Source of the DNA: a virus
Lineage: Duplodnaviria; Heunggongvirae; Uroviricota; Caudoviricetes
IMG/VR virus record: IMGVR_UViG_3300045988_139913
Reading direction: 5' to 3' (one strand)
DNA: 38,677 nt
Below the pieces are notes generated by a model. That model was not told the DNA's origin and ran no database searches. It saw only the letters and a list, made by a program, of their open reading frames with translations. Shown piece by piece: positions 1,605 to 37,717 of the stretch; the stretch's first letter is position 1, and each line of letters begins with the position of its first letter. Position numbers and translations under genes: made by a program.

Positions 1605-1700
1605 TGAAGCGGCGCACGAAAAGCGCGAAAGCGTTTCAAATAAAATACGAAAACTCAAAACTTTCGCGCTTCAATTGAGACAGTTGTTTTATGTATGTCA
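1605..1700. other. Prophage right end (attR) with transposase-binding repeats (R1-R3 region)
   Basis: TGAAGCGGCGCACGAAAAGCGCGAAAGCGTTTCAAATAAAATACGAAAAC with repeated CGAAA motifs, as in the Mu right end. Confidence 0.75.
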
Positions 1701-2144
1701 GTTTCGTTTACATTTATACGTCTTAAAAATATTCACATCATCTCGGATATAAAGATTTTTTCCTGATTTATCAACGATAAAATACTTTATAACCGCAGGA
1801 TTTCTAGTCAAAGCATAGAGATAATCAGTCCCTTTAATCTTTTCATCCTTGTCTTGTTCGTCAATTTGGCCTGTTTCTATCTGAGTGTATAGTTCACCTG
1901 TATCAAGGTCTGTCCATGACCCCATATCAACGCCCATATGCATACGAATACCGTGGCAGGTCCAAAAACCAGAGGCAGGGGCTTTATTTGCAACACTCTT
2001 ATCTGGATCTATCCCGGCGGACCTTAAGACTGCATCAGCAGCCACTTCAGGATCAAAATCTTTTTCTTGAGCGTGATTGACTGAGGAGGCGGTTAGTACG
2101 AATAGGCTGATGATGGTACTGATTAGCAATTTTGATTTTTTCAT
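1698..2144 (-). CDS. Secreted/periplasmic protein of unknown function (148 aa); moron between mom and attR
   Basis: N-terminal Sec-type signal peptide MKKSKLLISTIISLFVLTASSVNHA; own GGAG RBS; strongly AT-rich relative to flanking phage DNA; two Cys (C63, C146). Confidence 0.7.
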   Translation of the reverse strand: MKKSKLLISTIISLFVLTASSVNHAQEKDFDPEVAADAVLRSAGIDPDKSVANKAPASGFWTCHGIRMHMGVDMGSWTDLDTGELYTQIETGQIDEQDKDEKIKGTDYLYALTRNPAVIKYFIVDKSGKNLYIRDDVNIFKTYKCKRN

Positions 2145-2188: not shown

Positions 2189-2926
2189 CTAATCAGAACT
2201 GCTTTTTGGGTATGGCTGAATCCTGAATAGTTTGGTATTTAGCCGCTTTCTTGCTCGCTTGTTCAGGAACCTGATGTAGCGATACTGATTAAATTTGTGC
2301 ACCACGGCACGCTCTTTATTAGCCCGTAAATACATGCCTCGTTGTCCACCGCGCTTAATTGCGTTCATCGTTATCTCGTGATACCACTCACCATCCAGCT
2401 CGTAGAACGTGCTTTCATGGCTGCCAATAAAATCAAAATTTGACGCCTGATACACAACGCCAGCACGTCCGCAGCGTTCGTCTGCAAAAGACTGAACCCA
2501 CTCCACTGACGGATACAGTAACCTTATGGTTTTCAGTGCATAACTGATGGCCCGTGATTCAGAGTTGCGGGGCATGTCGTCGTGTAGCCACATGCGGTTC
2601 AACTCCATATAGCCCCGGTTATCCGTTTCAAGCACGACACGACGACCAGAGTTGGGGTTAAGGGCATATCCCCACTGGAGAACGCCAACCAGATCGCGTC
2701 CGCTGAATACTCCCAAGTGGAGGTAAGAGTTATTCACAAAACGGCGGGAATAGTGCTTTGTCTGAATAATTGTGCGGGCCAGCCAGCAGGATATGGTTTC
2801 AACGCGCAGCTCCTTTGAACCATAGCCAACAATCTGGCTTTCATACTCAATAACGCACGGTTTCGTCAGAATGCGTGATTTCTTCTCTTTTCCCACAATG
2901 TTTCTCCGTGGGATGCTCGCAGGCAT
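2189..2926 (-). CDS. mom: Mom DNA-modification protein
   Basis: Overlaps the 3' end of com as in Mu; last gene before the right end region; true start uncertain (ORF-track start is the longest possible). Confidence 0.8.
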
Positions 2927-3035
2927 TCAGCATTATGATATGACGTTTGCAACGCGGACACCTGATTTCAATGTGATCAAAGGAATCCGCCTTAAATAAC
3001 AGTTTGTTGCAGTTTTTACAGCGAATTGATTTCAT
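2847..3035 (-). CDS. com: Com, zinc-finger translational activator of mom
   Basis: 62 aa, [34 protein letters not shown]... with CxxC...CxxC; AGGAGG RBS; matches Mu Com as I recall it. Confidence 0.9.
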
Positions 3036-3093
3036 CTCACCTCCTTTGCATCAATTCGCCACTATCTTAAAAAACATCGTGGGTTGAGTGTGG

Positions 3094-3150
3094 TTATTGG
3101 GGCATAATCGATCTGTATTGCCGATCGATTTGATTGATTCGATCGTCGTT
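3094..3150 (-). promoter_or_regulatory. Pmom control region: dyad TTATTGGGGCATAA (candidate C-activator site) plus three clustered GATC (Dam) sites
   Basis: TTAT-N6-ATAA dyad at ~3094-3107 about 60 bp upstream of com ATG; GATC at ~3110, 3123, 3141; matches the known Dam/OxyR/C-regulated architecture of Mu Pmom. Confidence 0.6.
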
Positions 3151-3711
3151 TTCTATATGCGTTCGTTTCGCGGGGTGTTTTTTATACAGAGTTGACAGAG
3201 CCACATCATAGATCAATGCAACCTGCTTGCGGGGGATTCCTTGTGCTAATAAACGCCCGGCCTGCTCCCATTCCGCTTTGGTTAGTTTAGGTGGTCGCCC
3301 ACCAATACGGCCTTTATTTCTGGCGGCAGCAAGTCCAGCCATCGTTCGCTCGATGATTAGTTCTCGTTCCATTTCAGCCAGGGCACCCATAACGTGGAAG
3401 AAAAAACGCCCCATTGGAGAAGATGTGTCTATGCTGTCGGTAAGACTGCGAAAATTAATCCCTCGCTCCCGTAGTTCCCCGACGAGGGAAATCAGATGTT
3501 TCATGCTTCGCCCGAGGCGATCCAGTTTCCAGACAACCAGTGTGTCACCTTTTTGAAGGCGCTTTAACGCGCGTTTTAATCCAGGTCTGTCTGTCCTTGT
3601 TCCGCTTAATTTATCTTCAAATATTTGTTCACATCCTGCACAAACAAGAGCGTTTCGTTGCAGGTCTGTATTCTGGTCATTTGTTGATACCCTTACATAG
3701 CCAATCAGCAC
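3094..3711 (-). CDS. gin: Gin serine DNA invertase
   Basis: N-terminus MLIGYVRVSTNDQNTDLQRNAL typical of Gin/Hin/Cin/Pin resolvase-invertase family; adjacent to gix site. Confidence 0.95.
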   Translation of the reverse strand: MLIGYVRVSTNDQNTDLQRNALVCAGCEQIFEDKLSGTRTDRPGLKRALKRLQKGDTLVVWKLDRLGRSMKHLISLVGELRERGINFRSLTDSIDTSSPMGRFFFHVMGALAEMERELIIERTMAGLAAARNKGRIGGRPPKLTKAEWEQAGRLLAQGIPRKQVALIYDVALSTLYKKHPAKRTHIENDDRINQIDRQYRSIMPQ

Positions 3712-18401: not shown

Positions 18402-18433
18402 AACACATGCTCCTCCTTTTCCTTTAAATCAGG

Positions 18434-18461
18434 TTAAAAGGCGGCCTGAACCGCCTTTTAA
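18434..18461 (-). terminator. Perfect palindromic stem-loop immediately downstream of major head gene T
   Basis: TTAAAAGGCGG-CCTGAA-CCGCCTTTTAA in the 66-bp T/gp35 gap. Confidence 0.45.
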
Positions 18462-18467
18462 CGACGG

Positions 18468-28109: not shown

Positions 28110-28117
28110 TGACAGGA

Positions 28118-28144
28118 AATAACCGGCAGGATGCCGGTTATTTT
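28118..28144 (-). terminator. Hairpin at the end of C (middle-operon terminator candidate)
   Basis: AAATAACCGGCA-GGA-TGCCGGTTATTT, 12-bp perfect stem overlapping the C stop codon. Confidence 0.5.
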
Positions 28145-34094: not shown

Positions 34095-34322
34095 TTATCT
34101 CCAGATAATCTGGCAACCATTAAGACGGGCCGTCCATACAGAACGGGCCACCCCGGACTTATGCTCCATAATTCTGACCGCGTTTTTTACCAGTTCCACC
34201 GGTGGGTAAGTGATTTCAAGAATCGGACGCGCCACGCCGAGATATGATTCATTTACATGACTCCCGCGCGCCTGTAACCAGTTCTGCGCATCCGTTGCCA
34301 TTTTTATATTTCGGGCCATCAT
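34095..34322 (-). CDS. Small protein in Mu kil position (75 aa)
   Basis: First ORF after B, AAGGAG RBS; assignment as Kil is positional only. Confidence 0.55.
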
Positions 34323-37532: not shown

Positions 37533-37717
37533 TTCATGTAATCCTTTCAGATTCCCCCGTGAGCTACGCTATAAAGTAGCTCACGGCATATCGTGCAATG
37601 TAGTGTGGAATCATTTTTAAATCAATAGTGATTTGAAAGGATTTATCATGATTTCATATAACAGCATGATTTTTATATGAATTTATTTTGTCTCTATTGA
37701 AATCACTAGGATTTTAA
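37533..37717. promoter_or_regulatory. Immunity/operator region between ner and c (divergent Pe/Pc promoters, repressor operators, transposition enhancer)
   Basis: AT-rich 185-bp divergent intergenic region with repeated TAGTGATTT-type motifs. Confidence 0.7.
37557..37586. promoter_or_regulatory. Ner operator: two perfect 11-bp inverted repeats separated by 8 bp
   Basis: CCGTGAGCTAC-GCTATAAA-GTAGCTCACGG; matches the D108 ner operator architecture as I recall it. Confidence 0.7.

Follow-up and report, generated by a model that had tools for sequence, protein, structure and literature searches.

The gene mom is a classic toxic gene under stacked controls (Dam/OxyR, C, Fis, promoter distortion and Com). 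Is a further control, one acting on RNA, built into the promoter from which com and mom are transcribed? The question is raised by a 38,677-nucleotide (nt) stretch of DNA, called here the window (IMG/VR virus record IMGVR_UViG_3300045988_139913), in which positions 3021–3150 (minus strand) are, judged by sequence, almost certainly the Pmom control region of a Mu/D108-type prophage. This control region is known already; its little-studied part is an inverted repeat around the start of com, which is relevant only if functional. We propose, as a real but tentative possibility, that the repeat works as a hairpin in sense-strand RNA, straddling the transcription start (+1) and damping com translation on read-through transcripts by fold-back. 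The full 10–11-bp structure was limited to RNA started upstream of Pmom, which points to read-through insulation, a function absent from an earlier note on this DNA.

An inverted repeat across the start of Pmom

The earlier note had described a perfect 10-bp inverted repeat with the com ribosome binding site and ATG in its loop, and this is what was found: the arms GCGAATTGAT (3021–3030) and ATCAATTCGC (3050–3059) are separated by 19 nt. Its parts, numbered from the predicted start of the Pmom transcript, were as follows.

3057, minus strand: Pmom start, +1 (G), derived from three agreeing published statements; the com leader is 22 nt
3050–3059, minus strand: 5′ arm, mRNA sense GCGAAUUGAU, −2 to +8, of which only +1 to +8 is transcribed from Pmom
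3031–3049, minus strand: loop of 19 nt, with the com Shine–Dalgarno (SD) sequence AGGAGG (3040–3045) and the com ATG (3033–3035)
3021–3030, minus strand: 3′ arm AUCAAUUCGC, mRNA +28 to +37, from the last base of com codon 2 to codon 5
3060–3062, minus strand: stem-extending bases in G·U/U·G wobble with 3018–3020, upstream of +1 and in read-through RNA only

Counted from the A of the AUG, the 3′ arm covers +6 to +15, and the SD sequence and AUG stay in the 19-nt loop, outside the stem; in relatives the SD sequence or the AUG is in the stem.

The start at 3057 is derived indirectly from Mu publications, in three concordant ways, and its position in this strain is predicted. The primer GGAATCCGCCTTAAATAACA, published as annealing downstream of +56 (PMC3378877), equals window 2982–3001 and so places +1 at 3057. 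Setting the centre of the C-activator dyad (3100.5) to −43.5 (PMC2582627) gives the same base, and the published “−136 to +79” fragment (PMC3378877) coincides with the HincII site GTTGAC (3191–3196) and the BclI site TGATCA (2974–2979). The predicted start falls 2 nt inside the 5′ arm. According to the earlier note, a start downstream of this arm would keep the stem from forming in mRNA; with the start where it is, the idea survives in a weakened form. The fold placed by that note at the 5′ end of the mom transcript retains eight of its ten pairs in transcribed RNA and loses the two G-C pairs that close it, and the remaining stem is weak.

Five distinct perfect 10-bp repeats with loops of at most 30 nt were counted in the window, against about 1.2 hits expected, and 59% of Markov shuffles contained at least one. 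It is thus the position of the repeat, rather than its existence, that is noteworthy. The other perfect inverted repeats of at least 10 bp with short loops were at 1622–1631/1661–1670, 18433–18462, 28117–28143 and 37557–37586; the first sits in the transposase-binding region of the prophage right end and the other three resemble intergenic stem-loops.

Three further roles for the repeat were considered and rejected: an intrinsic terminator (the stem has no U tract after it, and a terminator search found none), an RNase III site (for which the stem is not long enough) and a hairpin by which Com binds its own leader (the loop lacks the Com motif CC(N)2–3GAG). Window 2700–3300, scanned on both strands with Rfam 15 covariance models, had no match at E values up to 1.

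Folding of native and read-through RNA

Native RNA, begun at 3057, was predicted to form eight AU-rich pairs, with −5.2 kcal/mol on evaluation and −6.9 kcal/mol as minimum free energy (MFE). Its stem was occupied about half of the time (pair probability 0.47 in a 198-nt context), and 36 of 200 shuffled sequences folded as well (z = −0.97). With the start shifted one base downstream the stem was worth only −2.3 kcal/mol. Read-through RNA was predicted to form 10–11 pairs, or up to 13 counting further G·U wobbles, at −11 to −13.4 kcal/mol and with a pair probability of 0.91–0.94; its MFE helix was 11 bp long. When folding began 5 nt upstream of +1, the full hairpin had −13.4 kcal/mol, a value reached by none of 200 shuffles (z = −3.54). 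The native hairpin was no better than shuffled sequence and the full hairpin was an outlier; what stands out statistically is therefore the full repeat, confined to RNA begun upstream of Pmom.

Conservation among Mu-type sequences

A Mu-type set of 14 distinct haplotypes was compared over the non-coding stretch from −109 to −25 relative to the ATG (84 positions). Variable sites were found at 22 of the 84 other upstream non-coding positions and at none of the ten positions of the 5′ arm, an outcome with a chance of about 0.05 at the local non-coding rate. The 3′ arm and the −10 hexamer were also invariant. The only changes adjoining the arm were in lineage L083, where two substitutions just upstream of it turn the G·U and U·G wobbles into A-U and C-G pairs, giving a 13-bp helix; they lie upstream of +1, in the part of the stem that is unique to read-through RNA. 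In E. coli genomes, 47 Mu-type copies were found, all at least 96.9% identical except a plasmid sequence that matched only in part (91.7% over 63% of the query), and the arms did not vary.

Predicted hairpins in diverged com-mom operons

Com homologues of 35–75% identity were gathered, flanking DNA included, from genomes, viral contigs, metagenomes and assemblies, and opening-cost and swap tests were made on 16 representatives of about 11 com-mom lineages. The +1 of each other lineage was predicted by the Mu rule, as the 53rd base after the last GATC. An E. coli group with 74% Com identity (L098–L110 and L176–L229; promoter not placeable), L031 (predicted leaderless com) and L024 (no GATC cluster) were left out; a metagenome pattern scan yielded only further members of the 74% group.

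In about ten diverged lineages the com ribosome site was masked by predicted hairpins that are mutually non-homologous in sequence. The partner of the ribosome site in read-through RNA lay between −41 and +8 in every representative, mostly upstream of +1, and the 5′ arms of the diverged lineages adjoined the −10 hexamer or lay within the promoter spacer.

L113 and L235: arms G(A/G)GUGCAUGUU and AACAUGCACUC, directly after TAAGAT
L111 and L237: arms CCCCCUC and GAGGGGG, after TACTAT
L114: arms UGACCUCC and GGAGGUCA, overlapping TAAAAT
L244: arms CUCUCCGG and CCGGGGAG, after TAAGAT
L246: arms GGUCCUCGA and UCGAGGAUC, after TAGAAT; a strong predicted element
L241: arms AGCCCCCU and AGGGGGCU, after TAAGAT
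L243: arms UGCCCCCC and GGGGGGCA; a strong predicted element
L003, L112, L004 and L066: arms inside the promoter spacer, upstream of −10

The predicted cost of opening the ribosome site was 2.7–8.4 kcal/mol in native RNA versus 12.8–20.8 kcal/mol in read-through RNA in all lineages except the Mu haplotype of the window. When each upstream 100 nt was combined with every ribosome site, the cognate pair ranked first to third of 13–16 in 15 of the 16 cases, and first in eight. In the hairpin shared by L114, L242, L243 and L004, 96.9% of cells were paired; two pairs had changed on both sides (A-U to C-G and U-A to C-G), and three one-sided changes were all to G·U. As G·U is a mismatch in DNA and on the antisense strand, this pattern fits pairing of sense-strand RNA, not a DNA palindrome. 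A co-directional gene (gin-like or for tail-fibre assembly) ended 110–180 nt upstream of com in most lineages; L083 and L066 had none.

The Mu layout of the promoter was kept in most operons, with three GATC sites, a 17-nt dyad resembling the activator box immediately behind the last of them, and the −10 hexamer about 22 nt further on. It was seen in L003, L004, L111–L114, L066 and L235–L247 (Salmonella, Citrobacter, Mixta, Erwinia, Apirhabdus and others) at Com identities of 35–75%, which suggests from sequence that control of the Dam/OxyR and C type is ancestral to the com-mom module. In the 74% group only two GATC sites were present, both inside a perfect palindrome, CGATCGATA-N6-TATCGATCG, and at the usual distance a clear Mu-type box or −10 hexamer was absent; the mom promoter of this group seems to have another architecture. 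A small ACAGGG/CUCUGU hairpin of this group was not kept in L110 and L178. In L031 (Edwardsiella anguillarum) the Mu spacing rule places the predicted start at the com ATG itself, and its com mRNA may be leaderless.

Points weighing against insulation

Several results weigh against read-through insulation by the hairpin, most of them from the window itself. Eight of the ten pairs persist in the authentic mRNA, so that the hairpin is weakened (from −13.4 to −6.9 kcal/mol) and still formed, and the SD sequence and AUG are located in the loop, outside the stem. The cost of opening the ribosome site (−14 to +13) was alike in native (8.1 kcal/mol) and long read-through RNA (8.4 kcal/mol), and 7.8–10.4 kcal/mol over many 5′ ends; the freed 5′ arm pairs with other upstream partners. 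In the swap test the cognate pair of the window came only tenth of 15, since its arm is mostly contained in the native part, and in a duplex-energy shuffle test the window gave p = 0.23. The thermodynamic proxies thus disagree with one another for the window. The fold prediction for the 5′ 80 nt of the transcript, named in the earlier note as a check, gave a divided answer: the hairpin was the MFE structure of the first 40–48 nt of native RNA (ensemble frequency 0.52) and was missing from that of the first 80 nt. In the 80-nt fold the com SD region CAAAGGA (3042–3048) pairs with UCCUUUG (2978–2984, minus strand; codons 17–19), in competition with the 5′ hairpin. The arms did not vary among Mu-type sequences, which are too alike, and so no covariation was visible. 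By the strict standard of IS10, an element's own transcript is unable to form the structure; that of the window still keeps eight of the ten pairs.

The other points concern the diverged operons. The lineage sample is small (about 11), and a shift of 3–4 nt in the predicted start sites of the other lineages would alter the transcribed share of each arm. The compensatory evidence comes from four sequences, and 29 of 500 shuffles were equally good. Duplex-energy shuffle tests gave p from 0.008 to 0.74 for single lineages and a combined p of about 0.005–0.008. Where a late tail gene lies upstream, read-through would come late, when Mom is wanted anyway.

Alternative explanations

The repeat could be a chance complementarity between the leader and the first com codons, kept by the close kinship of Mu-type phages and by other constraints on the leader (the Fis site at −7 to +12, the initial transcribed sequence and ribosome binding). 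A perfect 10-bp short-loop repeat is indeed expected about once per window, the Fis footprint spans −7 to +12, the invariant arms offer no covariation, and the equal opening energies of native and read-through RNA and the duplex test (p = 0.23) are what an accident would give. It would leave the full hairpin as an outlier among shuffles (z = −3.54) and the ten unvarying sites as an event of probability about 0.05. An accident is made less likely by the independent, non-homologous hairpins that about ten other lineages have at this place, and by their cognate specificity and compensatory changes. We rate chance somewhat below the proposed fold-back.

The hairpin could instead act in the authentic Pmom transcript, either as a 5′-terminal stem-loop against 5′-end-dependent decay by RppH/RNase E or, with codons 2–5 paired, as a modest throttle on com. 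Its native stem begins at nucleotide 1 and leaves no unpaired 5′ nucleotides, it is the MFE structure of the first 40–48 nt at an ensemble frequency of 0.52, and its arm is invariant in Mu-type haplotypes. Base pairing of the 5′ terminus is an established stabiliser in E. coli, as in Emory 1992, Bouvet & Belasco 1992 and Bricker & Belasco 1999, references listed in PMC3997798. The native hairpin is weak all the same (−5.2 to −6.9 kcal/mol, z = −0.97, 47% occupied in the 198-nt context); it is lost from the 80-nt MFE fold and vanishes when the start moves one base downstream (−2.3 kcal/mol). This role would also leave unexplained both the complementarity upstream of +1 and the predicted untranscribed arm in other lineages, and we regard it as unlikely.

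A role in DNA, in which a dimeric protein binds the repeat as a palindromic operator, or the repeat forms a cruciform at the start site, and represses Pmom or the divergent promoter momP2, is very improbable: the repeat does overlap +1 and the mapped Fis footprint (−7 to +12), and arms adjoin the −10 hexamer in several lineages, but arm sequences differ wholly between lineages while position and pairing are kept, this pairing is kept through G·U wobbles, which would be mismatched in DNA or in antisense RNA, no accessible paper gives a protein footprint at +28 to +37, and loops of 13–19 nt disfavour cruciform extrusion.

The Pmom promoter and the prophage

The control region of the window, 210 bases upstream of and into com, could be aligned without gaps to Mu and D108 (mean column identity 97%). 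It had four single-base differences from Mu, and the dyad, the −10 hexamer, the GATC sites and the repeat arms were all unchanged. Over 1.6–1.7 kb, the gin-com-mom segment was 99.9% identical to Mu_3F6 (Escherichia virus), 99.4% to D108 and 96.2% to Mu.

3110–3144, minus strand: three Dam sites, GATC at 3110–3113, 3123–3126 and 3141–3144, in the upstream OxyR/Dam-sensitive region (about −53 to −87; span 35 bp)
3094–3107, minus strand: C-activator dyad TTAT-N6-ATAA, TTATTGGGGCATAA (mRNA sense ATTATGCCCCAATAACC), centre 3100.5 = −43.5, identical to Mu
3089–3094, minus strand: proposed −35 hexamer ACCACA, separated from the −10 by a 19-bp spacer, named in PMC2582627
3064–3074, minus strand: T6 run (3069–3074) and −10 hexamer TAAGAT (3064–3069, −12 to −7), overlapping by one base, read from the sequence
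3711–3094, minus strand: gin invertase gene (205 amino acids, aa), co-directional with com and immediately upstream, its stop codon within the C dyad
3035–2847, minus strand: com, a 62-aa zinc-ribbon translational activator of mom with Pfam PF10122 homologues, named com in Mu and D108
2926–2189, minus strand: mom, DNA adenine modification enzyme, its start overlapping the end of com
2904–2928, minus strand: Com target and translation-inhibition structure GAAUGCCUGCGAGCAUCCCACGGAG, lying upstream of the mom start and overlapping it; already known, as an RNA switch of its own

The C-box dyad of the earlier note and its three Dam sites within about 35 bp upstream of com (GATC at 3110, 3123 and 3141) are thus present, and its comparison with known Mu regulation of mom (Dam/OxyR and activator C) was borne out by a near-identical sequence arranged as published. 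Published work on Pmom describes Dam/OxyR control, poor promoter elements, a T stretch that distorts the promoter and a Fis footprint at −7 to +12 (PMC3378877), as well as binding of C to a 16-bp imperfect dyad centred at −43.5, with ACCACA as −35 and a spacing of 19 bp (PMC2582627). This architecture (dyad centre, −35, spacer, T run and −10) agrees base for base with the window, and the Com target sequence quoted in PMC6483171 has an exact match at 2928–2904. From identity with the studied Mu promoter alone, we infer that C, OxyR and Fis would bind here and that expression would depend on Dam. These promoter features are already-known Mu biology; they identify the prophage type and fix the strand and the promoter coordinates.

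GATC was strongly under-represented in the whole window (81 sites, where dinucleotide content predicts about 145), and the triple at 3110–3144 was the sole case of three sites within 35 bp. TTAT-N6-ATAA dyads occurred twice, against about 0.4 expected; the other one, at 34095–34108 (TTATCTCCAGATAA), is far from late promoters. A second perfect inverted repeat, AATCGATC/GATCGATT (3106–3113/3123–3130, 9 nt apart), links the first Dam site of the OxyR region to the second.

The gin gene was 205 aa long, compared with 193 aa in Mu and 197 aa in D108, whose stops were lost by single-base changes: one of the four differences from Mu abolishes the Mu gin stop codon, and another change, relative to D108, lengthens the gene to 205 aa. 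Its reading frame passes through the three GATC sites and terminates at the TAA inside the C-activator dyad. RefSeq annotates this 618-nt gin gene in E. coli A21 too. Between mom and the prophage end, a 148-aa open reading frame (ORF; 1698–2144, minus strand) with a signal-peptide-like N-terminus corresponded to “D108-specific protein 56” (gene 56), which is missing from Mu and from the otherwise identical E. coli A21 prophage. Bases 1–1604 matched the terminase and portal genes of another prophage, itself uninterrupted in many E. coli genomes, and the portal ORF (450–1607) was broken at the junction (window 1605–1700 region). From this it appears that the portal gene of a prophage already in place was the target into which the Mu-like phage transposed.

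Proposed mechanism

As known from Mu, OxyR would occupy the three GATC sites if they are not Dam-methylated. C bound to the dyad at −43.5 would recruit RNA polymerase to the poor promoter, and transcription would start at 3057, with a 22-nt leader followed by com. The com product would later unlock mom translation at the separate RNA switch at 2904–2928.

RNA entering from upstream would form the full 10–11-bp stem, close the loop on the com SD sequence and AUG, and bury codons 2–5. The likeliest source of such RNA would be read-through from gin, because no terminator-like site was found between gin and com on the minus strand. With mRNA +6 to +15 from the start codon paired and the SD sequence and AUG in a closed loop, the full stem would hinder accommodation of the 30S subunit, and Com, hence toxic Mom, would stay low while Pmom is off. 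RNA started at Pmom, lacking the two closing G-C pairs and the extension, would carry only a weak 8-bp 5′-terminal hairpin, so that com would be translated more readily; the residual hairpin may slightly damp translation or shield the 5′ end. The discrimination between native and read-through RNA is predicted to be partial in Mu and nearly complete in most diverged com-mom operons; given this partial separation, chance and a 5′-end stabiliser are still live rivals for the Mu repeat.

For Mu-like prophages across Enterobacterales, a somewhat more tentative proposal is that a promoter-embedded anti-ribosome-site segment pairs with the com SD sequence or AUG only in read-through from gin or tail-fibre genes, so that RNA initiated at Pmom would be the only source of Com and Mom; the Mu/D108 repeat (3021–3059) would be a shifted, leaky version. 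The family-wide pattern of fold-back in com-mom operons we rate rather higher than a function of the Mu-type repeat itself.

Comparison with known systems

The closest known system is Pmom and com-mom of Mu, which shares with the window its promoter elements (C dyad, −35, T6 run and −10), the GATC triple, the com leader, the overlap of com with mom and the Com target; the window differs by four single bases, the longer gin and the D108-specific gene 56 beyond mom. The Com-dependent structure at the mom start belongs to the same operon and is likewise an RNA hairpin that limits translation initiation in a toxic pathway. The two are distinct in place, gene and trigger: that structure lies at 2904–2928, acts on mom and is opened by Com, whereas the repeat lies at 3021–3059, concerns com and has no CC(N)2–3GAG in its loop. 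The 5′ stem-loops of ompA and papA resemble the repeat in that its stem begins at the first transcribed nucleotide; unlike them, the window stem is much weaker, AU-rich, and lies around the ribosome binding site rather than ahead of it.

In IS10/IS50, fold-back inhibition shields the transposase gene from external promoters (Davis, Simons & Kleckner 1985, as cited in PMC13181058). The com repeat, like these, spans its own transcription start, with both complete arms only in upstream-started RNA, and the fold takes in the translation initiation region of a gene that is harmful if expressed at the wrong time. Unlike them, the native transcript of the window retains eight of ten pairs, the SD sequence and AUG are in the loop and the predicted opening energies show no net difference. 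The guarded gene is moreover a translational activator, not a transposase, and fold-back here is a prediction from sequence and folding. Diverged com-mom operons are predicted to fit the IS10/IS50 pattern closely: in L111, L114, L243, L244, L246 and L241 the own transcript was predicted to lack the structure.

Neither a com 5′ hairpin nor gin-to-mom read-through is mentioned in the accessible literature, a scope that does not take in the 1980s sequence papers and Hattman's 1999 review. A promoter-embedded fold-back layer of mom control, unremarked in this literature, is a possibility that we put forward with reserve. By analogy, the mechanism would be read-through insulation by fold-back across the transcription start, a kind already known, of which com would be a new member. 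If functional, the promoter-embedded fold-back would add a further control of mom, directed against read-through, in which translation of com depends on where its RNA was started; if true, the IS10/IS50 trick would extend beyond transposases.

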